Source of the DNA: Octopus vulgaris
Lineage: Eukaryota
Direction: 5' to 3'
Assembly: GCA_951406725.2 (NCBI GenBank)
Contig: OX597821.1
Coordinates: 53,506,001 to 53,570,000 of the forward strand
Length of the DNA: 64,000 nucleotides
The notes beneath the pieces are model-generated. The model was not told the DNA's origin and made no database searches. It saw only the letters and a list, made by a program, of their open reading frames with translations. Positions 3,973 through 55,577 of this stretch are shown here, piece after piece; positions within the stretch are counted from its first letter, which is position 1; each line of letters begins with the position of its first letter. The position numbers and the translations under genes were made by a program.

Positions 3973-4172
3973 CGTGTACCGTTGGAGATTTTTTTCCTCC
4001 GTCTTCCCTTCTTTGGATCTTTCCTTTTCCTATGTTTCTGACGAAGAGCTCCTCTCGAAACGTTAAACCCTCCTTCTTTCCTTCCTTCCTGAGCGTTCAA
4101 TAATACTATATTTGTTCCACGTCCTCCCGTTGTTGTGCTTTCTCTTTGTGTTTTCATGTTTAGATTAACTTG
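3973..4172 (+). mobile_element. Short non-autonomous Penelope-like (pLTR-derived) element ending at (TA)n
   Basis: Pyrimidine-rich segment with a hammerhead motif at 4034-4068, directly followed by (TA)n at 4173. Confidence 0.6.
4034..4068 (+). ncRNA. Minimal type-I hammerhead ribozyme motif
   Basis: Stem I GTTT(4034-37)/AAAC(4065-68); core CTGACGA(4038-44)+A; stem II GAG/CTC; GAAA(4057-60); palindromic stem III ACGT; GUU cleavage triplet ending 4064. Confidence 0.75.
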
Positions 4173-4226
4173 ATATATATATATATACATATATATATAC
4201 ATATATATACATATATATACATATAC

Positions 4227-4306
<80 letters not shown>

Positions 4307-4350
4307 ATATACATATACATATATACATATATAGATACATATTCGTATAT
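4173..4350. repeat. (TA)n/(TACA) microsatellite
   Basis: Direct reading. Confidence 0.9.
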
Positions 4351-4499
4351 ACGTGTTTATGTGTGCGTCTGTGAGTGTGAGTTTATGTGTGTGAGTAAAA
4401 ATCATGTTATATCTCTAATAAATAGGTGCCATTGAAAACAGTTAGCAGAGTATAATGTCGGGCACCTTGTGAATATGGGTTCTTTATTGACACCTCATT

Positions 4500-4597
4500 T
4501 ATAAATTACGTATACATTAATAGAATAATAAATAATAAATTACGCATACATTAAGAGAATAATAAATAATAGATTACATATAAATTAATAGAATAAA
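4500..4597. repeat. ~34-bp tandem repeat, about 3 copies
   Basis: ataaattacgtatacattaatagaataataaata repeated with substitutions. Confidence 0.7.
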
Positions 4598-5199
4598 CTG
4601 TCGGTTTTCCAACTAGCTAATGAAAGCTTGAAAGAGAAAGTGAGAGACTTTGCAAATGAGAATGAAATACTCCGTAGTGAATATCAATGAATATTTAAAT
4701 TTGCGAGGAATTGTAGTAAAAACAAAAAATTCAACTCGAGAAATCAAAATTATCGGAAATTTCTTAGAACATGAATTTCTAAAAATATTTCCAGACGGCG
4801 AACCCCTTAATAATTGTTTTTTCTTAGTACTTTTAGTAATTGCTACATACCTAATTAATAAGCAGCTTTCTCCATTATAGTATTGATATACGACGGGAAT
4901 GGTCGACTGCGTATTACTTTTATCTTAGTCTCCTTATTCTGGCTTTACTTTCATTCTTGTAAAGTGGGAAGTGTTTGTGGATTTCTACTCTGCATGGATT
5001 CCTTGTCGGCTTATTTTGGTATTATTTCGTTTTCATCATAGCTAACCTACTTAGGTTATTAGCGAATTTTATCAGTGGCCAGCATATAAGGTTTTTTATA
5101 TGCTGACAACTGATAAAATCTATTCATTTTAATGACTTTATTCTGTATATATGTTTAGATATAACCTATTCACTTCGGGTCAGTTTATTTACCTATGTA

Positions 5200-5510
5200 T
5201 TATTCTGAGGTGGAATACAAATTTCGATGCGATCTCGAATCTGCTCTTTCCACATATATCCAGATACTTAGCGGATTTTGTGTAATTCTCTTTGTTGTCT
5301 CTGGATCCTTGCATATTGGCAAAGGGAATTGCTGGTTTCACCAACATAATTTTGTTTAGGATTGGTGGAGGTTATGCAATATATGAGATTCTGTGTCTTG
5401 CAGATCATATCTGCATTTACGTGGAAGGAGAATCCAAATTTATATTTTATATGGGAACCATTATTCGAACATTTGAAGTTGTTGTTACATGTTCTACATC
5501 TGTTATCTAT
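5200..5510 (-). pseudogene. Penelope-like element GIY-YIG endonuclease remnant
   Basis: Manual minus-strand translation 5510-5268: NRCRTC...DMICKTQNLIYCITSTNPKQNYVGETSNSL...RIQRQQ (CxxC linker plus LIY...YVGET GIY-YIG motif). After a frameshift it continues KYLDICGKSRFEI. Not in the ORF track because it has no start codon. Confidence 0.8.
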
Positions 5511-5861
5511 TCAATTCTCCAGGGAGGATTCTGACATTTCTCTCATGTGTATTTTTCTACCTCTAACCAAGTCACCAAATATTCACTACACACATACTTA
5601 AACATGTACACATATATACATACATATGCGCACAACACATTTATATACGCCTATATGAATTCAAAGTAACATACGAAACGCACTCCCAATTCAATACGAA
5701 CTTTTTTCAACTTACATAGATATAAAAGGAATACATTTTCTGTTAAAAAATTATTACAGAAGAATATCTGAAAGAATATGAAGCGGTAAATAAATAATCA
5801 TTCTGATTAGCTCCTACTTCTTAATATATAAATTCTCTATACCACTTCAAACAATATCTAT

Positions 5862-5865
<4 letters not shown>

Positions 5866-5912
<47 letters not shown>

Positions 5913-5915
5913 GTA
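5866..5915. repeat. (TAA)n microsatellite
   Basis: Direct reading. Confidence 0.9.
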
Positions 5916-5959
5916 TTTGTATTGTATATATATACACATACACATCACACATATATGCA

Positions 5960-6525
5960 TTCGCAGCCATTCCCCTTCTTCTCTCCCTTCCTCTTGCTCC
6001 TCCTCCCCCTTCCCGTCATCCACCCGCGACGATACTTCCGCTCTGACTGTCTTTCTGGCCTGGCCTTTCAAGGTAACGGACGACATTCTTCCTGCTCCCC
6101 CGTCGTTCACAAAAAATTCTGCGTTTGCAATACTTTTTTCGTTCGGCGTCAACAGCCCTTCTTATCTTGTTTTTCCCTGTCCTGTCTTTTACTTGTTTAT
6201 AATTTTGTACTGTCGTTACTGTCCTGTTTTTTTTACCATTTTTTTACCATTTTTTACCCCTCTGCGAAAAGATCTCAGAATTTTAATTGATTTGCTTTTC
6301 GCAGGAAGGAAAGTTTCTTGTCGAAGATACGTCTCGCTTTTATCCTTCGAAACGTAGAGTAGATGAAACCATAGCGACTGAAGAAGGGTTTTTTTCTTTG
6401 TGTTAATTGTCCTGTACTCCATTTTTTTGTTGTTTTTAAAAAAATGTCCAGTTCCTTTGGTTTGTGTCTATGTTTTCGTTTCTCTTTGTGTTCGACGTCC
6501 CTTTGGTGTCCTGTACTCATATATG
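5960..6525 (+). mobile_element. Pyrimidine-rich structured element between microsatellites, probably Penelope-derived
   Basis: Strong C/T strand skew, CGAAACGTAGAG hammerhead 3' half at 6348-6359, CTGAAGAAG at 6378, flanked by TA-type microsatellites. Confidence 0.45.
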
Positions 6526-6597
6526 CGTGTATATGTACATGTAGAGGTAGATACGTGCATATATGTTTATATATATGCATATGTTTTATTTCATTTA

Positions 6598-6642
<45 letters not shown>

Positions 6643-7261
6643 GTACATAATCAATGCATAATTTAACATTACTTCCATCATTCTAAGCTATTTCTATATT
6701 TGAATAACCACTGTGACTATCAACTTATAAGAAATATTTTCGCCGAATTTGAGTTTCATTGAAAGTCAGTTCAGTTTAGGAAGTGCATGAATTTTATTCC
6801 TCTGATAAGTATCAGGAAATATATTATTTAGATATCGTAACCAACAGTTTTTCTAAAAGCTGCTGCATATTCATTGTACCATGGTATAAACAACATCTCT
6901 TACATGTGATACATTTATAACATGTCACATTAATAAACTCCATAATTCATGTGTTGATGCTCAGCCCATTAATTTTCGTAACATTGCTGGACGGTAATTT
7001 ACAGTGTTATGTCAGAAAATGATGAAAGAAATTAAAACAATACTAGATAACTAATATTCTTGTTTCATAAGGAAGACATTAATCTATTGTTGTGGACCAT
7101 ATGTGTTCAGATTTTCAGGATAAGGCAGAATAAATTCCAAACTGAACAGGCGAAAAGTTGTTAAATGTTCTGTTATTAAGCGTATTTTATATATATACAT
7201 TTCGAAGATGTTTTCTGATTTTTAAATTTAGTTTGGTAGTATTATCAATACAATGTGTGAG

Positions 7262-7475
7262 ACGAAGAGCTGGCAGAGAAGTTAGCACGTCGGACAATAT
7301 TTTGCAGCTTTACTTCCTGTCTTTGATGTTCTGAGTTCAAATTCTGCCAAGGTAGACTTTATCTCCTATACCTTCGGGTCAATAAAATAAGAACTAGTTG
7401 AACACAGGGGTAGATGGGAAACAGTTAACCCTTCTCCTAAAATTAATTGTTCTTGTGACAAAATTTGAAATAATT
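7262..7475 (+). mobile_element. Degenerate SINE family A/B
   Basis: gagctggcagag...ttagcacgtcgg...gttctgagttcaaattc...cttgtgacaaaatttgaaa matches 44111. Confidence 0.7.
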
Positions 7476-8855
7476 ATTGCTAAGATGGTTAATAGAACCA
7501 TAATAAAAACCCCATTGTTGTGGCGGATTTGAACCGCTCTATCGTTTTTTCTCTTCTACCTGAGAGTGAAAAACTGAGAAATGTCGCTTGGCTGTAGACA
7601 AGAAGAATGAATATACAATTTTAGAGGCGAATACTTTCCTTCTCCTCTTTGGAAGAGTTAGCTCTCAGTCTGTTTGGCTATAATTTAAAAATATGATTTT
7701 GAAACGTAATGAATATACATCATATGTAAATTCTAAATATACAGTTATTATCCTCATAACAATTATTTTATATTCACACACAAAATGAAAGTAGCAAATA
7801 GCTATTGAGTAACTTACTTAACTGTTTTCAATTGTACTAATTCCGACAAAATATTTTCGTTAAGAAAGTGATAAATTTAGGACCACTACCGAATGAGTAA
7901 TTCAGTAATTCAGAAAAATGTGTTTCAAACTATTTCTAGGAAATTTGCTGAGATCTATTGAAATTAGTTATTTTTAAGGTGTTTAACCCCAACTCAAACT
8001 TGACCTATCAGACCAATGAGGAAATGCATTTCAGTTTTGACCGTTATATCTTCTGTGTATGAAAAGGAGTAAATTATGCACATATAATTTTTTTGAGGAC
8101 GGTACGGTTTTTGCTGACTTACCTTTTATGATATTTGTAAAGCATGGTAGCACAGAGGCAGTATTTTCTGTACTATTTGTTTTATTTGTTTACAAGGAAC
8201 TAAGGACCCTATTTGTTTGTAGAGTAATTTTCGACAAGCTACATTAGTTCCAAAGCGATATTTCCTCGTGGTCTTGATATCAATAATGAAACTGCTGTGC
8301 TATGAATAAATGCAATTTGTGTAAGGAAGGGGAGTTAAATACCATGCAAAATTTGTTGTAAAAATCGCTAAATTGTTATATAATGCACATCGACTATTTT
8401 ATGAGTTGTACCCTGAAATGCTAATAATTCAGAAATCACATATTAACCAAAGAATAGCCTCAAATAAGAATATTTTGTCTGTTCGTTGTATACGATTGGC
8501 AAATATCCATACCTTCTTTCACGTGTAACACGTTTTTGTAAAATAAAAGCAATCACTTGTATATGTCAATATCGCGATCCCACAACCAAATCGCATAATG
8601 CATACCGTAGAACACAAACAGATATATATAAGATAGTTGTTCGATATCTATTGCCCTAGTAGTAAATAATATGATACATATACGCACTCCTGCGGGTTTT
8701 TGTGTGTCTTAGTGTCTTCTTTCAATTAACTTAATTTCTGTTAGTGCATGTGTGCATGTATTGATGTGTACATATCTCTAAACATATGTAGGTGCGTACA
8801 CAGGTGTGTGTGTGTGTGAGTGTTGAAAAATAGAAAACGTATATTAAAGTATAAA

Positions 8856-9051
8856 GGTGTGGCTGTGTGGTAAGAATCTTTCTTCTCAATCACATGGTTC
8901 CGGGTTTAGCCCACAGCCTGGCACCTTGGGCTAATGTCTTCTACTATAACTTCAGGCCGACCAAAGCCCTGTGTGTTGATTTGGTAAACGGAAACTGAAA
9001 ACAGCCCGTCATGAATGTACATGTATGCATGTATGTATATATATATATATG

Positions 9052-9100
<49 letters not shown>

Positions 9101-9325
9101 CATATATATATCAGTGTGTGTGGTCTTTTTTGCAATTGTATCCACCACCGCTTGACAACCGGTGATGATGTGTTGACATCCTCGTAACTTAACGGTTTGG
9201 GAGAAATATCAATAGAATAAGTACTAAGCTTAAAAAGAAGTATTAGGGTGGATTTATTCGACTAAAATTATTCAAGGCGATACCCCAGTATGGCTGTAAT
9301 ATAATAACTAAAGCAAGTAAAAGAT
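8856..9325 (+). mobile_element. tRNA-derived SINE family D with internal (TA)n/(TG)n
   Basis: Head gtggctgtgtggtaag...ggttccgggtt; body ggccgaccaaagcc...ggaaactgaaa; internal microsatellite; tail cgcttgacaaccg...aagtaaaaga. Homologous to 9356. Confidence 0.85.
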
Positions 9326-9355
9326 AGAGATGATTTACAAATATTCATTTACAAT

Positions 9356-9521
9356 AGGCATGGGAGTGGCTGTGTGGTAAGTAGCTTGTTTATCAGCCAC
9401 ATGGTTCCGGGTTCAGTCCCACTGCGTGGCACCTTGGGGAAGTGTCTTCTACTATAGCCTCGGGCCGACCAAAGCCTTGTGAGTAGATTTGGTAGACGGA
9501 AACTGAAAGAAGCCCGTCGTA

Positions 9522-9608
<87 letters not shown>

Positions 9609-9790
9609 TTGTGTGTCTGCGCTTGTCCCCCAACATCGCTTGACAACCGATGCTGGTGTGTTTACGTCCCCATAACTTAGCGGCTCGGCAAAATAGACCG
9701 ATAGAATAAGTCCTGGGGTCGATTTGCTCGACTAAAGGCGGTGATCCAGCATGGCCACATTCACATGACTGAAACATGTAAAAAAAGTAA
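9356..9790 (+). mobile_element. SINE family D, second adjacent copy
   Basis: Same modules as 8856 with an internal (TA)n(TG)n tract. Confidence 0.9.
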
Positions 9791-12391: not shown

Positions 12392-12690
12392 CTACAGATA
12401 TTTCAGACGTCTTTTTTATTGATGAACAAATCAATTATATCATGTATAAAATCTGTTTCCTTCAGATGAATTAAAATTAAAATAAAATCTACCGTTAGGA
12501 TTTTACACACAAAGAGTACAGAATGCATGTTGACTCTCTCATCTCAACCGGAACAGAGATTAGAGAGTCAGTATGCTTTCTATAGTTTTTTCTGTGAGAA
12601 AACCCTAAATGTTGAATATATTTATTTACCTGAAGTAATTTGATTTGTTCATCAATCAATGAAAAATAAATACGCCTGAAACAGCTGTAG
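12392..12690. repeat. Degenerate inverted repeat (arms ~12392-12450 and ~12622-12690)
   Basis: ctacagatatttcagacgt...attgatgaacaaatcaatta versus taatttgatttgttcatcaat...acgcctgaaacagctgtag. The right arm ends in GAAACAGCTGTA, the hammerhead 3' half also seen at 37917-37928. Confidence 0.6.
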
Positions 12691-13556
12691 CAAATCGTAG
12701 ACCATTTGTGTTATTATTATATATATATATTTTCTTTTATTCTTTTATTTATTTCAGTCATTTGACTGTCACCATGCTGGAGCTCCGCCTCAAAGGGTTT
12801 TACAGCTATAAAACCGTTGGTTATGTTCTGTGAAGAGTAAAATATAATTCGAACAACAAGACAAAGAAAGACTTTGACACATATTCAATCATTAGTTAGA
12901 ATTGTTTCTCTATCAGATCTGCTTTCAACAGAAGTTCATACAGAACTTCTGAGTAAAAGATGTACGTAATATTTGCATCTGCAGACATTATCGTGGCATT
13001 TTTCTCAAACTTGTATCAAAGGTGCGTTCCTACAATATACATTGAGTTTCCCTTACAGTGGGAGAAAACAAAAAGTAAATAAAGATGAAAATATAAACAG
13101 ACTGAAGAAAGATGGACAGGTTATGTACGTTGTTTTTTGGGAAAATACTCAGCACACATATTCACACACACACATACATAAACAGGCATATATGCAGAGA
13201 AACGAAAATATACGAATTTTACCTTATGAGGAATGTTACATATTATGGTAAAGAATGAAAAGGCAGAGTGATAAAACGAAATAAAAATGTAATGAAATAG
13301 AAACAGAGTAATAGTAAAATACAATTAATGAAAAACGGAATAAGTAGCAATGTCGTAACAATATATGTAGAAGTAAAGGCCTAACATTAAAGATAACAGG
13401 ATAGTATGTGACCGAAATGTATAACGCTAAAAGATCTCAGTAATAAGCTCAACATAGTAGAAGGTATTAAACGTAAAAGTCATACCAGCTCTGTAGTGTA
13501 TTTAACCAGCAATAGACATAAATATATAACAGAAAATAGAACAATGGAAAATAAAA

Positions 13557-13952
13557 TCTTTATATATAAAAGTGAGGTTGTGTGCTGTCTGTCTCCTACG
13601 ATTTAGATTCCTAATTACTCCCACATTTTGCGGTGCAGTTTAACCAAAACCGGGTATCTTATAGTCGTGATTCATATCGAGCCCTTCTGGGTATTAGCGC
13701 GCGTCTACGATGAGTCTACGATTAAAAAAAAAATTGCCATCAATTTTTCCCATTTTTTATGCATTTTTGGCATATATAAGGGAAGTAACTCTCTAAAAAT
13801 TTATAATTAAATCTCAGAACGTAAAAAGCTACAGTAACCCCCCCCCCTTTGTGGTTAGCCATATTGAGATGGCTATTATACTTTACTTCTCTAAAAATGC
13901 TTATATAGTTATATCCCTTACAAACCCGAGCAACGCCGGTCGATACTGCTAG
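13557..13952 (+). mobile_element. Non-autonomous Helitron
   Basis: 5' TC, 3' CTAG, subterminal hairpin cccgagcaacgccgg, inserted at A|T with no TSD; near-identical to 63528. Confidence 0.9.
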
Positions 13953-14774
13953 TATATAATAAAATAATACATAAAACCGATATATTCTAAATAGATTCAA
14001 TCGAAGAATGTGCGGTAGGGACGTATAAGGAATTATCAGAAAGTTATAGATATATATATATATAGCTATAATTGATTACTTGAATGTAATAAATGCAAAG
14101 CATACGATAATACCTATACGAAAAAGTTCCGAATGTGTGTAAAAGAGATAAAAAATAATCTATATGTGGAAGTATCTTCACTAAGTGGGGCAGCAGAACG
14201 TTGTCTGCAGTATTATCGAGTGTGGTAGACTTTCAGCGTTAGATAGTAGTCAGGTACGGAAATAATAAGTCCCAGACCTAGGGCAAAGTTAGGCTCATAC
14301 TCAATCATTGAAGTCACTTTTACCTCTCTGTTCATGATCTCCATATAAGGACGCAAGTTTGGACATATGTCTTCTACCATAGAGTTGATACGATCAATAA
14401 ATTGCATGCTTTTCTTTACCCTCCACTCCTCCTCCTCTCTCTCTCTTTCTTACTTCCTGCTTATACACGCACACACACACACATATACACGGGCACACAC
14501 ATACTCACCACACTAGATATGTGTATGTGTACGTTTGTGTGTTTGTATGTGTGTATGTGTGTGTGTCTGTATATATGCATGTATGGTATATGTACATTTA
14601 GTATGATGTATGTACCTTTAATATGCAGCTTTCTTTTAGAAATTAGATGAGTAAATGTTTCCTCCGACGACACGTAGAAGAGAAGTTGATTTTATAACGA
14701 CTGAACTGTTAGAGAGTTATATTTGGCACACCATGTTGGCGCGCATAAACTTTTGCGATCAATATTATATGTTT

Positions 14775-16429: not shown

Positions 16430-16469
16430 GAATGTATGTATATGCATATATACCAGAGTAAACATATAA

Positions 16470-16674
16470 ATGTGAAACAAGATGGGGGAAATAGTGCTCG
16501 AATACCGGAGATAGAATGTTATGCTTTATAAAAATATCGCAAAGACATCACAAAAACCGTCACTCGGAGTTTCAAGTTCCTGTTCGTCGGACAGTTTTGG
16601 TTGAGATCCGACGAACGGGAGCGTAAAACTCTGAGTAACAGCTTTTGTGATGTCTTTACACCTTTATTAATAAA

Positions 16675-16677
<3 letters not shown>
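16470..16677. mobile_element. Fold-back element with two inverted hammerhead motifs, between (TA)n tracts
   Basis: Arms ~16521-16591 and ~16607-16677; hammerhead on the minus strand 16557-16594 and on the plus strand 16608-16641; third copy at 18448. Confidence 0.7.
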
Positions 16678-18406: not shown

Positions 18407-18409
<3 letters not shown>

Positions 18410-18447
18410 TAAACTATTCAAATACTTATATATTTATATATAAGGAA

Positions 18448-18485
18448 CTGTTACTCAGACTTCCACGTTCCTGCTCGTCGGACGG
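18448..18485 (-). ncRNA. Degenerate hammerhead motif, same family as 16557/16608
   Basis: Minus strand CCGT-CCGACGA-GCAGGAACGT-GGAA-GTCTGAG-TA-ACAG, pointing into the (TA)n tract ending at 18406. Confidence 0.55.
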
Positions 18486-19447
18486 TTTTGTATAAAATTG
18501 AACAAGATAAAGTTATATGCAGAAATACAATTACTTTGTACACATTTGAAAATAGATTTACTTCATTGGTCCTTTCAACTAACGATCTTTGGAATAACCG
18601 GTTACATGAAATAACAAAGTGCGATTTAAGATCATATTATTATAAAATTCAAAGAAAGTCTTAAGTAAAAAATAGATTACGAAGAAGGAAAAAAGGCCTG
18701 AATACCCAGGGTAAATAATTAGTTGTAAAAATAATAACAAATTAATAAATTAAAAGATATATCCATTTGAAAACTTTTCACGCTAAATTGCATATACAAA
18801 TAGCGATACATACACACACCAAACAATCTATATTACACATATATACACTAAACATACAGACGTAGGTAGATGCCTACATTCATATACATACATATATAGG
18901 CAAAGCATAAATATATACAAATGCATACATATGTATGCACGAATAAACACACTCGCGCGCAAAAACTCCTAGCGTATGTTTATAAAAGTAGTTTTTACAG
19001 GCGAAAGAAAGAAAAGGAAAGAAGCGAAAAACAACAGGGAGAAGGAGAAAGAAAAAAGTGGGAAAGAAGGAAAAGAAATAAAAGAAATAGAAGCGGAAAA
19101 TTAGAAAGAGAAAAGAAAAAATAGATAGAGATATAGAGAGTGAAATTATTGGCGTTCCAATACGTATCTAACGAAAGTTAGATACTTCGTTCAGCTCGCG
19201 AAACATACATATATAAAAACGCACACATAAAATTATATGTATATCTACATAAATACAAACATACATACAAGTACACAAACATATAGATACGCATACAAAT
19301 AAATAAGTACGGAAATACATGCCCACATATATATAAATGTACTTACACACGCATATATATATATGTGTGTGTGTGTGTGCATATATATATATACATATAT
19401 GTTCTAGATACAGATTATGCAAAATATAAGTTCCTATAAGCACACAC

Positions 19448-29094: not shown

Positions 29095-30071
29095 TACATA
29101 TATGTAGATACGTCCGAGGGTGTGTATATGTATTAGCGTGAGTAAGAGTATGCGCATAATTACAACAGAATCTACAATTAAAATATATATTTCAAAGAAG
29201 TAATATATAGAATATATAGAAAATATGTTGTTTATTCTTATGATTTGCATAACATTTCAGCCCACGGCAACGTTTTACAGAGGATGTATTGAGTAAAGAA
29301 ATGTACATCTCTCAATGCATAGTAATAATGATCATGCCGTGAGGCTGAAAGTGTTTGCAACTCATAAGAATAAACAATATTAATTAATTGTGCTTTTAAG
29401 AATATATACCCTTGCCTGACAACTTGTTATTTCATGTATATAAATTGCGACCCTCTCTCTCTGTAGGCAGGGGTGCGCATGTGATTGTATATATAAAGAT
29501 TTGTTTATATGTTCTATGTAATCTAAAACTATATAGATATTCAATTCTCCTCTTGGCTTGCGCAGACTTTTTTTGAATTAACATTTGGCAGTGTATGTAC
29601 ACTAACAGCGAGTACATGCGTGTATTGTGTGCATACTTGAAAGACCAGAGGTTATATTGAAATATCTTCTTTTAATTAGCTATTTGTTAAATAGTGTGTG
29701 TGTGTTAGTGTGCTAGCGTGTATAGAAGTGCCTGCATGTGTGTATATGTGCTTAAGTTTGCTATTGTAAAAATATAAATATTTCAAAAAACATATGTTTG
29801 GTCTGCTAGAAAGTAGCCGTGTTGTATTCGTGAAAATACCGCATAAATTTTATTCCACTAGATCACCATCCCCAACTCAAAACAAATCGCAAGTAAAGAC
29901 TTTTTCTTTCGAGACTTCGAAGCGTATTGGACAGATAACAATTTCTTTTTTCTTTGCACATTTTTATATTATGCTTAATTCTACAAGATCCCGTTGCTTC
30001 AGGTCTTGGCTAATAAAGTCCACACAAGTTGGTGTTCCACTGTATCATTTGCTTTTCCACATCACAATGTA

Positions 30072-31305
30072 GGGGAGACCGGGTCTAGTTATTACACTTT
30101 TTCCCTTTTTTTCTTGGCATCCACATAAAAAAACACAGCTGAAGTTTCTTTTCATATTTAATTAATGAAACATCTCTATTTATTGTTATCACCAGCAAAA
30201 AAGCAGAAATTATATAGCATTAATTAGACAGGTTCTAATTAATGAAGTGGTGTCAGCTGTAACAATTTTCCCCGAGTGCGGGGTACGTTGTGACACTTAC
30301 TGGGGTACTTTCTTACAAGTGTCGATAACTCAGATTCCTGTTAACAAACAAATTTAAAATGAATACGTCTCCTGCTTCTTACATCTAGGAAGTATTGTTT
30401 TAATTAATTAACTGTACTTTGAACCACTTCAAATCCTAACTGTGATACTGAGAGCCCTCATCAGCCAATTTCCCTTTGTTACATGTGCCATGTAGTCAGA
30501 ATCGTCCTCCATTAACTTCTCACCACACGGATCACACAGAAAGTTCTGTCGTTCATCGGTACAGTCAGTATGTGCCCAGTCTTTACAGATCATGCATTGC
30601 CCCCATTCTTCACATGGAAAGGAGTTGGAAAACAAATATGAGCAGACAAAGTATTTCCAATAAATGACTTTCTTGCTGCGAGGCTGCTTCCCTTTCTCTT
30701 TACCTGTTTTAGTAGACTTTCTCTTTCCCATTCTTACCTTTTCAGTACCAGTTGCCTTCTTTGGTTTGGATTTCAGTTCGTGTATTTCATCCACCATGCG
30801 CTGTTTTACGGCAACATCCCGTAATAAATTTTTTCTTTCACAACTTTTGGTATCTATGGTATCCCCCCTTATAGTTTTTCTTTTGTAATTTCTAATCATG
30901 GCGTGTTAAACTGATATAGAAAGAGTAAGTTGTTACATACCTAGGGTAAGTTGATACACTGTAATATTTAGCCCTGACCATGGAATTCTGGGGATTATCC
31001 AGGACACACCTTCATGTATCGAAGGCAACTTCCAACACTTCCAAATGTACCACAAACTACTTCAGTAACACCATTTGCGCTTTAGTAGTTAAGGAAATAA
31101 CTTTGTGGTAAAATTTCACTTTTGGAGTAAAAAATCGTTTTTTGAGCCAGAACATTCCTGGTGACAGCCCGTCACTGCAATACACATGTGCAATCATGAT
31201 GCTATGGAGTTGGCCTTCACGAGGTAGAGATCCGAGTGCCACCTATTTCTTGAGGTTGGAAACAATGGGCTTGTAACAAATTACCCGTGTAACAACTAGA
31301 CCCGG
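30072..31305 (-). mobile_element. Internally deleted pogo/Fot1-like (Tc1-mariner superfamily) DNA transposon
   Basis: Left TA|GGGGAGACCGGGTCTAGTTATTACAC; right GTGTAACAACTAGACCCGG (terminal 7 nt missing); subterminal GGGTAAGTTGTTACA-like repeats; ORF begins MIRNYKRKTIRG, typical of the psq-HTH start of these transposases. Confidence 0.75.
30429..30899 (-). CDS. Transposon-derived 156-aa ORF: transposase N-terminus fused in frame to a Lys-rich region and C-terminal PHD finger
   Basis: (Y)FVC...WGQCMICKDWAHTDC...FLCDPC is a C4HC3 PHD pattern with the first Cys replaced by Tyr; no DDE domain; expression unknown. Confidence 0.5.
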   Translation of the reverse strand: MIRNYKRKTIRGDTIDTKSCERKNLLRDVAVKQRMVDEIHELKSKPKKATGTEKVRMGKRKSTKTGKEKGKQPRSKKVIYWKYFVCSYLFSNSFPCEEWGQCMICKDWAHTDCTDERQNFLCDPCGEKLMEDDSDYMAHVTKGNWLMRALSITVRI

Positions 31306-32889: not shown

Positions 32890-32954
32890 AACACATACAT
32901 ATATGTGTGAAGGTGTGTGTGCGTGCTTGTGTGTGTGCGTGCTTGTGTGTGTGT

Positions 32955-33115
32955 ATTAAAAGTAATTAAGTTTAAGTCCGGTCATAGAGTTATGAATGGC
33001 TTCGCATCTACAAAGGCTTTAGCCTCGTTGACGTTCATGAATCTGAAGCCTTTGTAGATGCGAAACCATTGGTCACTCTATGCCCGGATATAATACAAAT
33101 TTAATTATTTTAAAT
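32955..33115. mobile_element. Fold-back element with inverted hammerhead halves between microsatellites
   Basis: Core arms 32977-33022 and 33043-33088, 20-nt loop, AT-rich arm extensions; right arm reads TGA-A-GC...GC-GAAA-CCATTGG-TC (GUC site). Confidence 0.65.
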
Positions 33116-33171
33116 ATATTACTGCAGTATGTTTTACGGTGTGTTTCGTTTTCGGAGACATGATACATTGA

Positions 33172-33218
<47 letters not shown>

Positions 33219-34180
33219 AGCGTGCGCATGTGTGCATGGATACTCATTTATTATAGGAATACACCAATACACAACGAGTTATTAATAACACCAATACGAA
33301 AATATATCCATGTTATAACATCGGTGAATTAGAAACTGTATTTTCCTGTCAAAAATAGTACTGATTTCACTTCAAATGTTTCCGAAATCACTTAATGGAA
33401 ATATATTTAAATAGAAATTTGTGCGCTAGCTGATGTTCAGGCATTCAAATGTACTAAAAGCGAACACTTTTAATAGTTGCATGTAGAAGATATTTACCAA
33501 AGATATTTCAGAGTTCCGTTACTAAGCAATTTGAAAACCGATCTGTCTGAAGAATTAACCCTGATCTACCAAATAACCGATTTCTTTGTGTTCTATATAT
33601 TTCTGCCATTTAATCCACAAACATACAACTACAACTGAGAGTGTTAAACCTGATGAAAGTCAAATCCATTAAAGTAGGATCAATAATTCCAGACTCAAAC
33701 AAACTTTTCCGCATTTTCCTTATTCTAGTTTAGCTAGAGATCGATGTGATGGAGAGAAATGATATGAGAATAGGTTAAGCTATCATTTGAATTATATCTA
33801 ATATTTGCAAACATTTGGTCTTACCAACTCAGTTTCAGATTGCCTACTAAGCTGAATAAATGCTTTTCTCCTTCACCTATTTATAATCACTTAGACAGCA
33901 TGGCAGGGAAACATAATAGCAAGAGAGATTTCTGAAATATATGTTCAAACAACTCTCTCAATTCCCTCGGACACCCAACCTCATCAAACATATGTTATAT
34001 CAAGATAACTTAAAGAAACATATAGTTGTTTATAATATATTGCTTAACGATGTCAATTCTAAATTCCTTACTTTCATGATACAAGTCTTGAAAAATTTAC
34101 GAAACAGAAAAAACCCCCAGTGAATTTAAGGTTTATTATGATGATTTAGTTGAAAATTAAGAATGAAACATTAATTTATA

Positions 34181-34730
34181 TTGGGTTGTTCGGAAAGTTC
34201 GTGCCAATTTTTAAAGGAAAGAAAAAGATGAATAAATACTTGCCATTACATTTTTAATCGACCAAATAGGAATCATTTTGTTGCATAATGCGTCTCCATC
34301 TTTCCTTTAACTTGAAAATACGCTCTTCCCAGAATTGAGGTAGTTTCAAGGCAAACAATTCATCAAAGTATCTTTTACGTCATCCAAAGAATTGACATTT
34401 TTATCATTAAGACTATTCTAAAGAGACCTGAATAAGTGGAAATCCGAAGGAGCAATATCTGGTGAATATGGAGTGTGGGGTAACTGCAGTAATTTTTGTC
34501 TGGTTCCCAAAGCATCAAGTGCCGAAATTGAACTTTCTTATCTTCCATTTTAAAGGGTTACAGAATTAACACAGGTTATAGGAACATAAACATTCTTCCA
34601 TGAAAATGTAGCTTAAACTGTGCTCTAAATGGAGGTGTTGTTAAATCCTATTTTATGGACTCAACCATGTTCTAAAATAAGTCGAAATTTAAGCTACTAT
34701 AAATCGGCACGAACTTTCCGGACAACCCAA
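34181..34730 (-). mobile_element. Internally deleted mariner transposon (550 bp)
   Basis: TA TSDs; ~30-bp TIRs ttgggttgttcggaaagttcgtgccaattt / aaatcggcacgaactttccggacaacccaa; minus strand MEDKKVQFRHLMLWE joined to PHTPYSPDIAPSDFHLFRSL (YSPDxAP motif) and FWEERIFKLKERWRRIMQQNDSYLVD*. Confidence 0.93.
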
Positions 34731-37484
34731 TATATTCTCAAATTTAGCAAGTATATAAAGTTATGGGCAGTTAGCTAATTACTATTTGATATTGCCGAAA
34801 TAATGTTACACCTATTTGATAACTATTACCACATCTGTCACATTACACAAGTACGTTATACGTAAAATGGTTAGACTTAAGTTATATTATTGTGTAGCAT
34901 GAATTATGTGATTTGTTGGTGGTGTAGGAGATGTGTAATATAATCGAGTATTGATTATATTAGTTATTTTATGTTGTGATTGTTGCATATTAAATTGTAT
35001 TATGTGTGATATGTGCAGCAAGGTTTGCGAGTTGTGTTGTTGATATGAGAGGGCATTGTATAAAATGCGAATTATACATATTGAGACTAGTTTGAGTGAT
35101 ATGCATAGAGTTGTGGATCCTGATAGGGTTCCTATATATTTGTTCATGCTTTTCTTTATCATATATAGTGGAACACTTATTATTCGTACAGGTTTATTTT
35201 TACATACATTTTTTTTTCAATTTTTAGATCTTTCTCGGCATTATCCCGTCCCGTATCACTGTTCAACATTCGTATCATAGGCCGTGTTCGATAGATACTT
35301 AAAACAAATTATCCTCAGTTTTCATATCGGAATGCCATCAGTTTATTGCTCAAATGGCAATAGTTACCGATTCACTTTAGTTAATATCTGAGGATATATT
35401 CTAATATCCAATAAATGAAGAACTGCATTTGGACATAATATAGATACTTTATAGCAAGGGATAAAATGACTTGGATATTCACGTACGTAAAACTTAAGAA
35501 CTTACACTCTTTACGACCTACGCTCAGTTCCTTTTGCTCATGTATTCCTTTTATACCAAATATATTTACTAATCTCCAAATGTTATTAGAGTTATGCTTG
35601 CTTTCAATCTACATATGATTCTTATTTCAATTTCAAGACTTTTGTACGTTGAAAAGGTATTTCGCTAAAGCATGAGAAAGCTTTCACTGAATCTTTATAT
35701 AGTAAGAATAGAAAAAAGTTAGGTTCATATTGGCTAAAAAAATCCTTATTATATTATATGCAATTTGTGAATGTCCTTTGCTAAATGGTTACTTAAGACT
35801 CCGGCTATTACAATTGCATATGGCATGTTAGAAGCATTTTGTTTTGCTTAAATCTATATATTTTTAAATATTTGACATTTAGCAGTAAACAAAAGATGGT
35901 ACTGTGTAATATATAATATTCAATTTTTTTTCTTCTCGGTACCATATCAAACATTTCTCAGAGAAGCGGTAAATGGAACGATTTCTAATTATGTTTGTTG
36001 TTTAGAAACAAATCAATTTTCAAAGAGCGGTTTCAGGGTTGAAGGTGTTAGAGATATATTTTCTAATGAGTACCTTTCTAAAGAGTTGACAGAGATTTGG
36101 GTTTTTTTCTCACTAGCAAAACCAACACATAAATGCTTTTTATTTATGTGTATTTTTTTAGTTCCGTGAAGACAAAGACTACGCCTTGAGTAGTAGGTAT
36201 TCTATCAGAATCTATACCTAGCAGTTATAGCTGACAGATTATTTTCTTCTGGTATTGTTACCACTGTTATTAGAACTTTCATTTTCACTTCGCTTGTGCG
36301 CGTTTCTGTATCTGTGTGGGTGTGTGTTGTAACCTATGAAAATGATTGTAAATAGGCGTGCCATTAAGTATGTTTCTGATAACTGAAAGTTGCAAAGATG
36401 TACAACATAGTGCCTTCCCAATGTATATTCTTTCCTCGGGTGCTTACTTAAATCTGCAGATATAAATGAAATGATAAATCAAATTGATTACTGAATAAAA
36501 CTTATAGAATTTCTTCCCACTCTTCTCCTCGTTATTCGTCACACTGGGGTTAAGTCAATCGACCAAACCCATGCTGCTTACAAAAGGTTCTTTAGATAAG
36601 CACTTCCTACGAAAGAAAGTAATAAGATTCCGGAAAAAATACCAACATCAAGACTGCTCATGCATATCTAACGATTAATTGATTGTTTTGTCTAAGATAA
36701 GACCACCAGACATGACCAATGTGAAATATCCTTTAGAAAATCATTTAATAAGCAGAGGTAAACAATGAGACGAAACGTGAGCTGAAATAATAGCTGTTTT
36801 CTTTCTTTATTGTTATGAGAAACACATTTCATGAGAAGTTTATAGCATAAAGCTGAGTAACCTTTGTAGAACACAAAGGGTACGTCAGAGTAATTGAAAA
36901 GGGAACCATAACTATGAAAGAAAACGAATTTTGAATAATTCAAGATGTTCATGGAGAAATGTAGCGCTGCATTCACATTGGGAATTGTATCTTTAATATA
37001 TTATTTGTTTCAATTTTTCTTTAAAGAATTTATATTCAAAGCTGAGAATAGGCTGACTTGGAGTGTGGCAAAGTTACGGTCAGTTTCATTATATGATATT
37101 TAGATAATACAGTTTATTAGTTTCATATGCGAATATTATAGATACATGAAAATTATCAAAACAGTATTACAAAGATTCGCAATGTATTTCATTGAAGTTT
37201 CACTAGTAATTGCAAAATGTATTGGACTAGGTTGTGTCTAAAATCCAGTCATGCTAACAAGAGAAGCATTCGGAAATTGAAGAACTATTTGTGAACAAAC
37301 ACTGAAAAATGATCAAAGCAATGATTTTATGAAGAAAATAACACGAATCACCAGCAAAATGTAGTACTATATAATTGAATGCATCGATTTGCAATTCTTA
37401 ATATCCGCATTGATCGGGTTGTGACTCTTTCTGTATCGCTAAATTGTTTCTTTTATGTGTCAGTATAAAATGACATCTAACAGC

Positions 37485-37843: not shown

Positions 37844-37844
37844 C

Positions 37845-38615
37845 GTAAAAAAAATTTTCAGAATGAGATAAAAAAAATAAGGCTGTGAAGATTTTAGAAC
37901 ATTTATAAATACGTCTTACAGCTGTTTCCAACATATTTATTATATCCCTTCATCGGAAACGGTGAGAGAAGATGGTAAAGCAATAGTTAATTTAGATAAG
38001 ATACGAAATAGAGAGTGAAGTGGAGGAAAGAAAGTAGATGTGAGATATGCGGGGATATTGCATTTATAGATCCATTATTGAGGCAGAATCGTATACATAT
38101 AAGATTGCAATATCTTGTGAGTAAATCCAATAGTATTTAGAATTGTCCTTCCAAGTATAGAGTTTGTACATAGTGCTATTGAATCAAGGGTTTTATTGAA
38201 AGTGACCTAAAAGTAGTGAATGTATTTGTAAGGTCAAATCGAAAACAGGAAGAGAGGAATAAAGAAAAGAGAAAAAAGAAAAGAAGAAAAAATAGGAAGA
38301 AAAGAGAAAAAAGAAAAGAAGAAAAAATAGGAAGAAAAGAGAAAAAAGAAAAGCAAGGAGAGAGATAATAAGGGAAAGTGTACCAGTTAGTGGTCAGTCA
38401 AGATAATTTGAAAGTAGGAATGGGGAGATGAGGGTAATACGGAGAGAAAGGTATTAGAGTGTAAAAAGATAGAAGGAATGCAGGGTGAGAAAGAGAGGGA
38501 GGCATAAAAAGTACAGGGGTGACAGTTACGTAGTGATAGAGTCTAAGTGATGGGGCAGAGAGAGTGGTATTAGTATGGAGTGAAGAATTTAGGAATATAG
38601 ATTAGGTAGTTGGAC
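37845..38615 (-). mobile_element. Penelope-like non-coding element with hammerhead, 3' end at (TA)n
   Basis: Purine-rich plus strand (pyrimidine-rich sense), hammerhead at 37912-37961, ends in (TA)n/(CA)n at 37791-37843; internal 35-bp tandem repeat at ~38262-38352. Confidence 0.55.
37912..37961 (-). ncRNA. Type-I hammerhead motif with CCGAUGA core
   Basis: CGTTT-CCGATGA-AGGGATATAATAAATATGTTG-GAAA-CAGCTG-TA-AGACG: 5-bp stem I, palindromic stem III ACAGCTGT, GUA site; stem II partly decayed. Confidence 0.65.
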
Positions 38616-44711: not shown

Positions 44712-45288
44712 TTTCAACTCGAGGTGCAAGGCCCGAAATTTTGCGGGGAGGGGACTAGTCGATTAGATAAACTCCAGTACGAAACTGGTACGTAATTTAT
44801 TGACCTCGAAATGATTACAGGCAAAATCGACCTCGGCGGAATTTGAACTCAGAACGTAGTGGCAGATGAAATACCTATTTCTTTATTACCCACAAGGGGC
44901 TAAACACAGAGAGGACAAACAAGGACAGACAAACGTTTTAGTCGATTATATCGACCCCAGTGCGTAACCGGTACTTGTTTAATCGACCCCGAAAGGATGA
45001 AAGGCAAAGTCGACCTCGGCGGAATTTGAACTCAGAACGTAGTGGCAGATGAAATACCTATTTCTTTATTACCCACAAGGGGCTAAACACAGAGGGAACA
45101 AACAAGGACATAAATAGGTATTAAGTCGATTACATCGACCCCAGTGCGTAACTGGTACTTAATTTATCGATCCCGAAAGGATGACAGGCAAAGTCGACCT
45201 CGGCGGAATTTGAACTCACAAAGTAACGCAGATGAAATACCGCTAAGCATTTCGCCCTGCGTGCTACCGATTCCGCCAACTCGCCGTC
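44712..45288 (-). mobile_element. Tandem trimeric SINE (head + A unit + A unit + B unit)
   Basis: gatgaaATACC recurs at 44871, 45054 and 45237 (period 183); flanked by aggcattgtgtatt/aggcactatgtatt, an apparent single old TSD. Confidence 0.88.
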
Positions 45289-45914
45289 TAGGCACTATGT
45301 ATTAAATAAGTAAACTATTGACAGAGTACTCTCATGGATTATTAGAAAATCGGTTCACGTGTTTGTAAATGTGTAAGTGTGCGTCAATGTACAACATACA
45401 TACATACATTTATCGTCGTTAAATATAATATAAGTGTAAATGAATGCGTGAATAACGGTGAAACATACCGATTGAATCAAACAGATTGATTGAAAGTGCC
45501 TATCGCATTTCTCTTTAACTTCAACCGTTAGTTCGTAAGTAAGTAATTAAATAAATATAAAATTACGATTATCAAGATTGCTTTCAGAACGCGTAATATG
45601 CACACACCCATATACATCCATATGTAAGTGAATTCTGCATCAGTGTGTTTCCGTATGTTGTAAAATAAAATACTCCACATTTACATAGGCTATATTCTAA
45701 CATCAATCAAGAGATAACTTCTCACTAAATGATGTTCAATTTTCATTGTTTATTGATTAGTCTTCAGTTATTTTCAAAACATGATATGCCTGTGGGTATA
45801 ATTAATTACACATATCATATGCATGCATAAGCATATTCATACATACATACCGATATACATGCACACGGGCGTGCGCACGCATATATACTTGTATGCACGC
45901 GCGCGTGCGCGTCT

Positions 45915-51100: not shown

Positions 51101-51537
51101 AATGATCCTTAGGAAGAGTTTATCACTTACATCTGGTACTGTGTAATCTACTAAACTAGACTTTATGTTCACAAAATGTATAGTTTGGCTGAGTGTTTAG
51201 GAAATTCTCTTCATACTATGAGGTCTCAAATGTGATTCCACTGCGGATCACATCTGACTAGTGCCCTTCACCATAGTTTCGGAAGGAACAAAACATAGTG
51301 AAATTGTTTAGAAACCCGTTGATTAGACTGTGGTGGTAGCCCAAAAATGTAGCCTTATTCTGTTTGTCACAAATGTATCACGACTGTTCTACTTGACAAT
51401 TACATTAAGGATACAAGTATCAATGAAATAATAATTCAATGAGCAGGTGATTGAGGTGATCGGACAACTGGAAGAACATACCGCTGAAACTGATGTAATA
51501 GACATACATATATAACTACATGGATACATACATAAAA

Positions 51538-51605
<68 letters not shown>

Positions 51606-54600
51606 TGATGTAATATACATACATACATGACTACATAGAAATATACATACAAACATACATGTGGGAACTATACTGAATGTTCACTATTGAAATGTATTTA
51701 ATCGGACGTCTGTTCGACAGGGGTAGACGTGAACTAATAAACACAACATCAAATAAAACCAAAATAACAAACGCCAAATATCTGTTTACAATACTAACAG
51801 AATATATCAGTCGTTTGTAGCATTATGGTAAAACAATTAGAAACCTAAGCTATGTGATTCACTATATTGTGTTATATTGCTTTACATCAAGTGCTCTTCG
51901 CTTTATCGAATCGTGCTTACCTTTCATTCCGTAATGATTTACGAATAAGTAACACCAATTAATATACTGGTATATTCCCAGCTTCTGATATGACAAAACT
52001 TAAATGAATATTACAAATGAACTAGACGTTGGGGGAGGGATGAATTTATGTAAAACAATGCTAGATGTTTGGTTTAATAAAGTTATCAGCCTGTCTGTAC
52101 CCAAACCCGCTTCATCCTCGTTTACAATTAGACATATCTCTTCAGCATAGGTTATAGAATAAGTAAATATATTCTTTACTTTCAAGAGTTTGATCGTTCT
52201 TTAGATAGACGAAATATATGTATATATTTACATATATATGTAAATATGTATGTATATATATATATATATATATGTATATACATGTGTGTATATACGTATA
52301 TATATATATGCATGTGTTTGTATGTATAATGTATATAATATGAACGAACACCAGAAACGAAGATGGAAAAAATTACGTTCAGTTACGATATAAACAATTT
52401 TATATAATTGAAAAAAAATTGCATTGAATAGACAATTACATAAAGATTGTAGAAATATCGTAGAATGAGCAAAAATACAAAACCAAGAATGAATGCAGTC
52501 GATAAAAATATATGCAGCGTATTCAAGATATTTTTAACAGAGGGAAGGGACATTTGTAGAGACGCGCAAAGACTCACCAACACGCATAAACACACACTCA
52601 CCCTCATATATATATACATACACACGCACACATACGAACACAACTCGCAAAGAATATATATATAGATGTTTAATCATGTGCATGCATATATATATATATA
52701 TATATGTATAAACATGTGTATATATGTATATGGATGTGTGCGTGTGTAAGTGTGCGTATATATATATATATATATACATATAATGACGCATTTATATATG
52801 AGTGTGTACACACCCACCCACATGCACACACATATAAGCATGCTTACTTCTATGCGGCACATGCAATTTTACATGCATGCAATGATTCGGCAGGAGCAAG
52901 TATGTGTATATAAATATATAAAGTGTGTATGTGTTTATGTATATATGCCTATGTATGCACACACAAGTACGTGTTGGTGTTTTGGGCTGAGTGTATGTAT
53001 ATATGTATCTTAGCATCTAACTCTCTGTCTTGCGTGCACCTATATAACATAGTAAAATAATGTATTTCACATACATTCGTAGAAGTTTTAGCATGCGATT
53101 ACATATTTCTGGTACTTTTGTGCGAGTGTGTTTGTGCGCGTCCGCCTCCAGGATTCATATTGCACCTGATGATATTCTACGCTGTGCTTCTGAATGTTTA
53201 GATTAATTCCATTGTAAAGGTTTCGTATGTCAAAAGCTGAATAGTTTTCATATTTTTTGAAATTATTTTCTCCAACGAATTCCTCGAACTTTGACGTAAA
53301 CATGCAATCAATTTTCTTTATATTGTTGCTGCTTTGTTTTGTTTATTTATGTTTAGTTTTGTTTTGTTCATAAATATAGATTATTGATTAATTCATTGTA
53401 AATACTGGCGAGTGAATTTTCGATAAAGTAACTAGAAAATCAACAGAGAAGAAAAAAGTGAGGAATTTTTGGTAGGCGTGGAAATTGTTTCTCTCCTTAG
53501 CTGGCAGATAAATTAGAAATGGAAATGTTAATAGATGTTTTCAAACTGATCACTCTCATCAATCTCTCTTATATTTAATATTTCTTTTCATGTGGCACTA
53601 ATTGGGCTGAGGGCAGGATCCGCCCTAAATATGGTGCAAAATAAAAGAAAATAACAATAATTTGTTCAATCAAATAATAGAAGTGGATAGTGTTCGACGA
53701 AACACCGTGCTTTATATCATGTTTGTTTATATTTTTTCAACTCTCCTAACTTCGGGTTCAAACGCTCCTTACATAGAGTTTTGTTTTCACTCTTTTGGAA
53801 TCGATAAAATAAACTCCGGACTGATGCTGCGAAATATGAAGCTAGAGCCGAAGTTAGATATCCTTATTTAAAAGAATGCGCTGGGCATTGGTAGAATCAT
53901 TAGAGTGTCGGGAAAAATAACGATGTAGCAAAAAATGTGACCAAAATGGTAGTTTCTTAGTGGATTTATTGAGAAGCGAACATCAGTGGATTGGAAGAAT
54001 CCTTATGGTAACTGATAAAACGGTAATAGTATTTGCAGCACATTACGTTCTGAAGTGCAATTTCATTGAAGCTCTTCTTTAGCGTTCATCCTTCCTGGTG
54101 GTTAAATCACCAGTTACATACTGAAAACAATTTCATCAATTATATTTAGCCCAACAACTAGAAAAAACCTGATGCCATATACCAGAATTACAATTCAAAT
54201 GTTTTTGCTTCTCAAAATATTACTCTCCATCAAAAGAAGTGATAAAGAATTTTTGTGTTCCTAAAGAAAATATTTTATATTTCACAAGAAATTCAAGTTC
54301 TGGAAGCGGGCCCAATAGTATTTCAGCCATAACTAGTTGCGTAATCTATAACCAGTTAATAATAGTTTTTGAGCCTGAGATCGATCTTGAACCTGTAGAC
54401 ATATGATGAAATACGTTATAGGTATGACACCCCAACTTGTATTGTGATATGATGTGCAGGAGAATACATTATCCCACGCAAATTTTCTCCTAGCCTGTGA
54501 GACGTAATGAGAGGGTCAGTTAGTTGTTGCCTTCAGCTACAATATCACTGAAAATTGAAGAAGCTGATCGAAACCGAGGAGCGAGCAAAAAGCAAACCTA

Positions 54601-54659
54601 CCACTGCAGGGGTAAAAACGTAAATGAATTTGAAGATATACAGATATAACGTAATTTAG

Positions 54660-55334
54660 AACTCTGAGATAATACTCTTAGTGTTAATCAGTGGGTCTCG
54701 CTGCCTGAGATTAAACTAATACCTTCTTCGGCACGCTTGTTACGTGATATGGGTATGTCTCCAAATTCATTTGCATCTTTTTCCCCTGCAATCGTATGGT
54801 GGCTACTCGCTACTCAATGTCATTCATATTGTTAAATTTTCAGTGATATTGTGGATTATTTGAGTATTTTCTACTTTTATTTCTAGCAACGCTAGTACTA
54901 TCTGGTACCCTTAATTATAATTATAATTATGAAATTATAAATTTATCTTTTTGGTTTATATGATTACTAGCCACTTATATTATTATTATTTATTAATAAT
55001 AATATCTTTATTTATGTATAATTATACACTTCTATCGCTTGTATTTGGTGCTAGTCTTTCAACGATTTTAACAAGCATGACGAAACAGGTATTGGATTAA
55101 CCCCAGGTAGCGAGACCCACTGGTGAGGACTAAGAGTATTATCTCAGAGTTTGAAATAGGTATGTCTGCAAATGCATTTGCGTCTTTTCCATCGCAATGG
55201 TAGATTGGCTTTTTATACGGTCCTTGATTTCATTCATTTTGATAAATTTCACTTTTATTTCTGGCAACTCTGATACTCTCTGGCACCCTTGATTATAGTT
55301 ATTATATATATATAACCACGTTCCCACTTAAAAT

Positions 55335-55338
<4 letters not shown>
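54660..55338 (+). mobile_element. Penelope-like pLTR-derived element with tandem hammerhead remnants and an upstream inverted partial copy
   Basis: 82-bp inverted arms 54660-54741 and 55070-55151; CGAAACAGGTA at 55081; CCCA-CTGGTGA-GGACT...AGTTT-GAAA-TAGG-TA-TG at 55116-55164; ends at (TA)n. Confidence 0.65.
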
Positions 55339-55427
<89 letters not shown>

Positions 55428-55474
55428 GCACACATACATACATACATATATATACACACACACAAACGCGCACG

Positions 55475-55554
<80 letters not shown>

Positions 55555-55577
55555 ATTTTAAGTGGGAACGTGGTTAT
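55312..55577. repeat. Perfect 27-bp inverted repeat enclosing a pure microsatellite
   Basis: ataaccacgttcccacttaaaatggca (55312-38) and tgccattttaagtgggaacgtggttat (55551-77) around (TA)n(CA)n(TA)n. Confidence 0.9.

Follow-up and report, generated by a model that had tools for sequence, protein, structure and literature searches.

The window analyzed here, the whole of a 64,000-nt stretch of Octopus vulgaris DNA (assembly GCA_951406725.2, contig OX597821.1, positions 53,506,001 to 53,570,000 of the forward strand), contains short units that bear hammerhead ribozyme motifs and run into (TA)n microsatellites, together with the remnant of a Penelope-like element (PLE). A first-pass annotation had taken the units for several families of ribozyme-processed, retrozyme-like mini-elements that home into (TA)n, with seven clearer and five weaker motifs, and its coordinates proved correct when the sites were re-read. 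Self-comparison of the window sorted the seven clearer sites into families A (4034), B (16557, 16608 and 18448), C (33043), D (37912) and E (55116), so the earlier count of at least five unrelated families holds. Stem sequences differ among the families, and the order core, stem II, GAAA, palindrome, UH and stem I is constant.

The family A copy (3966–4172, plus strand, ∼210 bp) lacks an open reading frame and consists of a U-rich leader, a minimal type-I hammerhead at 4034–4068 (core at 4038, predicted cleavage after 4064) and a tail that ends in a TA-type microsatellite at 4173–4354. Its hammerhead has the CUGANGA core, an unpaired base after A9, the G10.1-C11.1 pair, GAAA, a palindromic helix III of minimal size, NUH and a short helix I of 4 bp. 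Four of 24 listed public runs (X2, X9, X3 and X22) were matched to positions 3945–4184, and family A is present in runs under more than one organism label; X3 stands under another label, and X9 is taken as RNA by guess only. The matching contigs numbered 14599 in X2, 3881 in X9 and 12277 in X3; they are short, and their counts are not copy counts. Position 4053, which breaks stem II in the window copy, is G in 89–95% of the contig depth in these three runs, and this base restores a 4-bp stem II. No change at or above 8% was listed for positions 4038–4049. CpG-type decay at 4056/4057 reached 18% in X2. Selection acting on transcribed copies was weighed as the cause of its lower level in X9 and dismissed, because the DNA run X3 is also low and depth does not equal copy number.

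A strict scan for type-I hammerheads picked out a single motif, with its core at 4038, from the window; 40 local dinucleotide shuffles yielded none. A relaxed, scored scan, which accepts C at core position 4, returned three motifs at a score of at least 8 (cores 4038 plus, 16590 minus and 37956 minus), compared with a mean of 0.52 and a maximum of 2 in 25 shuffles. Their scores were reached by 1.8, 0.2 and 0.2%, respectively, of 600 random 160-nt stretches of the window, a control that can itself include real sites. Taken singly, the sites at 16608, 18448, 33043 and 55116 had scores reached by 13, 66, 51 and 24% of the stretches. Hence, of the seven motifs first called clear, three stand above chance alone, three are backed by sibling copies and 33043 is a half-motif, and the seven represent only five families. 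The five weaker motifs (14664, 14775, 15181, 16224 and 12908) were rejected as hammerheads, since their scores were reached by 20, 51, 31, 91 and 59% of the stretches and are indistinguishable from the background. Rfam reported no hammerhead at 3960–4172 or 16453–16675, and none among 150 of the 229 rows for the whole window; it also missed all eight positive-control PLE loci with clear cores, and this negative result is therefore uninformative.

Family B is present in three copies, the sites at 16608 and 18448 aligning with 16557. Copy 1 (16453–16606, minus) has a CCGACGA core at 16590, an 8-bp stem I, a near-palindromic stem III and a long tail into a degenerate TA tract that ends at 16452. 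Copy 2 (16607–16675, plus) begins at the core, head-to-head with copy 1, and its tail enters (TA)19; copy 3 (18407–18495, minus) has its core at 18481. Family C forms a head-to-head pair (32954–33173) with arms at 32972–33022 and 33043–33093. The motif at 33043 retains a good 3′ half of the hammerhead, and its 5′ core is decayed and reads CTGAAGC; the left arm meets a TG/TA tract and ends there, ∼37 nt beyond the base equivalent to the cleavage site, and the right arm faces (AT)21. The single copy of family D (37844–37965, minus) has a CCGATGA core at 37956, a perfect palindromic stem III, a decayed stem II and a tail into (AT)14. Family E comprises an inverted pair (54539–54925), in which a minus copy at 54539–54742 lies head-to-head with a plus copy that starts at 54740 and is truncated inside stem III, and a third copy (55069–55311, plus, core 55120) in which several core bases are changed or lost. 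Bases lost at 55116 are present in the copies at 54539–54910, among them those of a palindromic stem III and of a 5-bp stem I; each copy is decayed, and the core looks intact only when the three are combined. A possible further remnant (12640–12729, plus), absent from the first-pass list, carries GAAA and the palindromic stem III of family D at 12678, 28 nt before (TA)6; it is weak, with an unrecognizable 5′ core and a score reached by 4.8% of background stretches.

CCGA replaces CUGA in 3/3 copies of family B and in the family D copy, with topology and palindromic helix III retained; family B also lacks G10.1-C11.1. The U4C change is described as a low-activity natural variant in a viroid (PMC3088659).

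From the predicted cleavage base, the next downstream (TA)5+ tract lies at 108 nt in family A, 143, 38 and 45 nt in copies 1 to 3 of family B, 99 nt in C, 73 nt in D and 140 nt, with a short (TA)5, in E. The reported succession of hammerhead, short tail and TA-type microsatellite is thus confirmed at 7/7 clearer sites, all within 150 nt (38–143 nt), compared with 7.7% of random non-repeat positions of the window. The site set of the earlier reader may have been biased toward TA-adjacent motifs; the three motifs picked by score alone also lie within 150 nt of (TA)5+ (3/3, p ∼5e-4). Contigs of family A likewise continue through AT units. The window holds 65 (TA)5+ tracts in 34 merged clusters, and by our own reading of the cluster list ∼8 of the 34 adjoin a hammerhead unit. 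Repeats of other types also abut TA tracts, e.g., at 63528–63816 and 55312–55577. The proposal that such elements help build the microsatellite landscape did not gain support, as insertion into a tract and creation of one are not distinguished by these counts; what the window data show is homing to TA, not microsatellite making.

Inverted pairs in head-to-head arrangement were found in three of the five families (B, C and E), and their arms are 78–84% complementary. In the B and C pairs each 3′ end is directed at a simple repeat, and the arms differ in length by ∼60–70 nt, compared with a published difference of 30–40 bp (PMC8557442). The 5′ truncation falls at the core in one arm of family B and inside stem III in family E. 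No tandem array of any hammerhead unit was found in the window, and self-comparison gave one partial, interrupted direct duplicate, in family E. Minimal hammerheads of PLEs are described as mostly solitary, probably truncated PLEs, with opposite-strand pairs 100–700 bp apart (PMC4209133), and inverted 5′-truncated copies with one-sided tails are reported for PLE insertions (PMC8557442; PMC8969392), together with a preference for TA (PMC8557442). A purified PLE protein cleaves and extends both target strands from two internal start sites, and ribozyme cleavage is dispensable in this reaction (PMC11167929). The inverted 5′-truncated copies (B, C and E) and one-sided tails (B and C) match, at the level of sequence, the signature of PLE insertion, and by analogy the pairs may have originated by two-strand priming.

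A comparable arrangement surrounds family A. An unrelated repeat, presumably SINE-like (SINE, short interspersed nuclear element), lies head-to-head with it at 3711–3965 on the minus strand, and its 3′ end adjoins (TA)22 at 3667–3710. The interval 3667–4354 accordingly reads (TA)n, SINE-like repeat (minus), family A (plus) and (TA)n, with the two repeats joined at slightly clipped 5′ ends, and it is possibly a chimeric two-strand insertion.

The PLE remnant (5127–5573, minus, the low end being approximate and taken from the translation) is a broken linker and C-terminal GIY-YIG endonuclease, interrupted by stops and a frameshift, on the strand opposite to family A. Its 80-residue frame (5271–5510) matched 35 proteins at E ≤1e-3 in a full HMMER search (best 7e-12), so the Penelope GIY-YIG remnant noted earlier is real. 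A word-index protein search with the remnant returned nothing, and the remnant itself was assigned to no family by Pfam. Among seven relatives scanned, GIY-YIG was found in five and RVT_1 followed by GIY-YIG in two; the best relatives consist of a reverse transcriptase (RT), a CX2-5CxxC linker and, at the C terminus, GIY-YIG. The remnant retains CxxC and the GIY-YIG motif without the RT, and is Neptune-like by domain order alone. When the window was searched by tblastn with the 35 PLE proteins, the sole match was at 5292–5573. An imperfect palindrome at 5066–5119, just past the end of the remnant, contains no recognized hammerhead, nor do those at 12495–12608 and 29231–29374.

The related coding loci (the best 80 of 101) supplied 67 with at least 300 nt of downstream sequence. 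A hammerhead core was found downstream on the sense strand in 37 of these 67 and on the antisense strand in 3, compared with 0.4 expected from shuffles. In a closer set of 17 loci, picked by hand, the core lies within 330 nt of the match end in 10, and four of the ten (L002, L003, L057 and L074) reach (TA)4+ 20–110 nt later. Therefore, "hammerhead, short tail, TA tract" is the 3′ anatomy of some coding PLEs. No relative was found in viral contigs by PLE alignment. Two loci had further features: the core of L003 (716) is covariant at U3-A8, and L004 (58/3757), of a family whose stem II is very short, is a tandem PLE that has a 1655-bp exact direct repeat and carries its hammerhead again at a distance of 3.7 kb.

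What was observed directly comprises the motifs, how they are oriented and how far they lie from (TA)n, the inverted pairs, the PLE remnant and, among coding relatives in other organisms, a like 3′ anatomy. We consider it probable that the motifs are 3′ terminal pieces, derived from the pseudo long terminal repeats (pLTRs), of several PLE families with minimal type-I hammerheads. The family A consensus supports this reading, since it matches the published consensus of minimal hammerheads in PLEs, which comprises a U-rich leader, CUGANGAH, G10.1-C11.1 and a palindromic helix III (PMC4209133). Each of the families A–E would belong to a coding PLE of this genome. A Neptune-like protein with RT, cysteine linker and C-terminal endonuclease would nick the (TA)n tract, and cDNA synthesis would start from a fixed site 40–140 nt downstream of the hammerhead, with the uncleaved transcript as template. 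Early arrest of synthesis would leave only the hammerhead and its tail. If both target strands were primed, two short cDNAs would meet and yield a head-to-head pair with unequal tails, as in B, C and E, and the copies would afterwards decay neutrally.

These results bear on the first-pass annotation in different ways: its observations are partly confirmed and its interpretation is partly supported. A connection to PLEs through several families gains support from the inverted pairs, the remnant and the 3′ anatomy of the coding relatives. The attribute "ribozyme-processed" fares poorly: the predicted cleavage site is mid-unit, ∼100 nt from each end of family A, and therefore neither integrated end is set by cleavage. 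Likewise, the mid-unit site implies that the units did not originate from a simply cleaved linear RNA, and that an uncleaved or circular template is needed. The predicted stem covariation among copies was not seen either, as no compensatory change was found within families, which is expected of decayed genomic copies.

Several findings weigh against the PLE-end reading. No coding PLE could be tied to any of the families A–E; no window hammerhead unit matched the 80 loci by blastn, and three stretches downstream of the remnant held no hammerhead above background. None of the 37 cores found at the related loci has the CCGA of B and D. Docking at TA is no general trait of these relatives, because (TA)4+ lies downstream in only 10 of the 37 cored loci, mostly 140–320 nt away, with none on the contig in the other 27. 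Folds of single copies do not surpass those of shuffles (z from −1.3 to +1.6, single-strand folding), and no compensatory double change in family A was listed at the 8% threshold. In the raw-read run X22, 9 of 12.9 million reads matched family A, 8 of these 9 being low-complexity partial matches, and the family A core pattern had no match in metagenome, viral or prokaryote collections. Finally, loose ends pile up before position 3974 in 102 (X2), 43 (X9) and 119 (X3) contigs, with AT-rich heterogeneous flanks beyond: ∼14–19 nt upstream of 3974 are common, and then agreement is lost (0.55–0.65 overall). On sequence grounds, this pile-up points to a 5′ start that the copies have in common and to a unit length of ∼215 bp, and a single 5′ start is not predicted by random truncation.

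These ends are the main point of the next explanation, by which family A, and perhaps others, is a self-standing ∼215-bp non-autonomous element that derives from a PLE terminus, has a fixed 5′ start of its own and is transcribed and mobilized in trans into (TA)n by a PLE protein; its internal hammerhead would not set the ends. We regard it as rather unlikely for the units in general and as nearly an even bet for family A alone, and it is compatible with the PLE-end reading for B–E. The short stretch shared beyond 3974, the thousands of contigs in each of three runs and the occurrence of the family under more than one organism label speak in its favor, as do 117 (X2), 30 (X9) and 162 (X3) contigs that pass the right end through six AT units. 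However, only contigs matching the AT units could reach the right end, so that this count is biased, and at the left end, where depth is zero, no contig could pass. Copies of a longer element would be merged into a small number of contigs, possibly among 444 further loose-end rows, and upstream a few additional letters are common to X2 and X9, which makes a longer subfamily possible. Copies of B, C and E begin at different points, as truncated copies do. Moreover, an autonomous transcript could yield a fixed 5′ end with no separate element involved, if its reverse transcription began in the upstream pLTR and continued to the start site of the transcript, as may be inferred from the reaction described for the lizard element (PMC11167929). 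The description of the units as short non-autonomous mini-elements is thus supported as far as family A goes, which has no open reading frame and one 5′ start in many copies; with this abundance and common start, family A may be non-autonomous.

It is improbable that the units are true non-LTR retrozymes, i.e., tandem units that self-cleave to monomers and circularize before a PLE copies them into (TA)n by reverse transcription, with the window holding decayed monomers. Animal retrozymes resemble the units here in lacking protein-coding capacity, in having a type-I hammerhead and in being PLE-derived (Cervera and de la Pena, 2020, PMC7229834; Li, Clavereau and Pollet, 2026, bioRxiv 10.64898/2026.07.22.740005); the ∼215-bp unit lies within their 150–450 bp range, and solo monomers are described as common in retrozyme families (bioRxiv 10.64898/2026.07.22.740005). 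In X9, the consensus of one group of upstream loose ends bears a loose resemblance to the 3′ end of the unit itself, and short head-to-tail junctions are possible. Nevertheless, in these reports retrozymes are defined by units in tandem, hammerheads of the canonical kind and circular RNA, whereas the units here, known from DNA and contigs, are non-tandem and minimal. A canonical retrozyme hammerhead has a 6-bp helix I and loop 1-loop 2 contacts, in contrast to the 4-bp helix I of family A. All seven joints in the family A listing are forward skips, of one contig each; no back-joint is among them, although short contigs could hide such junctions. Head-to-head pairs dominate, and the cleavage site is mid-unit. 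The earlier label "retrozyme-like" is therefore not borne out by the window or by the listed joints.

Chance occurrence of so short a motif, in a genome rich in AT and in microsatellites, explains the five weak sites and possibly 33043 and 12678, relaxed scans giving ∼6 matches per shuffled window, but as a general explanation chance is hardly credible, as three sites beat the shuffles, all point toward (TA)n, the family A consensus improves the fold, siblings complete B and E, and for A, B and D it is refuted by the relaxed scan against shuffles, the family A contigs and the family B siblings.

A more specific combination, which we put forward tentatively and hold to be doubtful as a whole, would join three statements: (i) family A is a discrete, very abundant ∼215-bp non-autonomous, PLE-dependent element with a fixed 5′ start, an intact mid-unit minimal hammerhead and strict (TA)n homing, that is, a SINE-like class driven by a PLE and not by a long interspersed nuclear element (LINE), and apart from the tandem retrozymes; (ii) the U4C core is a variant fixed in two PLE lineages, B and D; and (iii) the interval 3711–4172 is a chimera, in which a SINE and family A entered one TA tract via two-strand priming on two RNAs.

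The main features all have precedent: solitary minimal hammerheads in animals, TA-targeted PLEs and PLE-derived non-autonomous units. The minimal hammerheads of metazoan PLEs (Cervera and De la Pena, 2014, PMC4209133) are alike in type-I topology, the bulged base after A9, G10.1-C11.1 and the palindromic helix III, and also in the presence of many families per genome, mostly as solitary copies, and of opposite-strand pairs. They are unlike families B and D, which have C at position 4, and family B, which lacks G10.1-C11.1, and the TA docking seen here is outside the focus of that paper. Its mollusc examples include Lottia and Crassostrea, and one of its supplement files has no octopus entry. 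The Neptune, Hydra and Naiad clades (Craig et al., 2021, PMC8557442) share (TA)n targets, inverted 5′-truncated copies, one-sided tails and a cysteine linker before GIY-YIG, and Naiads of Octopus, Euprymna and Architeuthis are listed there as (TA)n-targeted. In contrast to the C-terminal endonuclease of the remnant's relatives, Naiads are described as having an N-terminal endonuclease and no canonical hammerheads. Five short motifs of families A–D do not occur in the cephalopod entries of the supplement of that paper. Poseidon PAc of Anolis (Frangieh et al., 2024, PMC11167929) provides a model for AT-rich two-strand nicking, with two internal RT starts and dispensable hammerhead cleavage, but it is a lizard element of another PLE clade, studied in vitro, and is not microsatellite-specific. 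A literature search that lay outside most subscription journals and the repeat databases found no report on families A–E. A 2026 repeat annotation of Octopus vulgaris counts Penelope families, and its main text contains neither "hammerhead" nor "ribozyme" (PMC13282606); the giant squid paper gives 235 hammerhead loci (PMC6962438).

Other elements share the window with these units. Outside any hammerhead unit, a separate inverted-repeat element at 55312–55577 has unique arms of 26 nt; together with the AT units beside them, they make up a perfect inverted repeat of 60 nt that encloses a TA/CA microsatellite. It is either an assembly fold-back or a DNA-transposon-like element that is young and internally deleted. 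The 3′ part of a non-LTR retrotransposon (58040–59352; zf-RVT, E 5e-6) lies between (AAT)n tracts, with a 236-bp, 93% palindrome on its 5′ side. At 34177–34734, 37-bp terminal inverted repeats flank ∼480 bp, presumably an internally deleted mariner-type element. An abundant SINE-like family is represented by a 183-bp unit in 2.7 tandem copies (44756–45289) and by about ten further copies in the window; no hammerhead was called in it. Non-hammerhead repeat copies at 13557–13953 and 63528–63841 are 91% identical, the second lying between two TA tracts. A 158-codon stop-free frame (30432–30905, minus) with a cysteine-rich PHD/RING-like end had no significant Pfam match and is probably a DNA-transposon remnant.

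If the motifs are indeed PLE ends, the finding would be of modest value, extending minimal PLE hammerheads and TA homing to this genome, and two-strand priming would have left a natural record in the head-to-head pairs. Should family A be free-standing, its thousands of variants would permit a test of selection on PLE hammerheads during transposition, for which the comparison would be the decay of core versus flank in young versus old copies.

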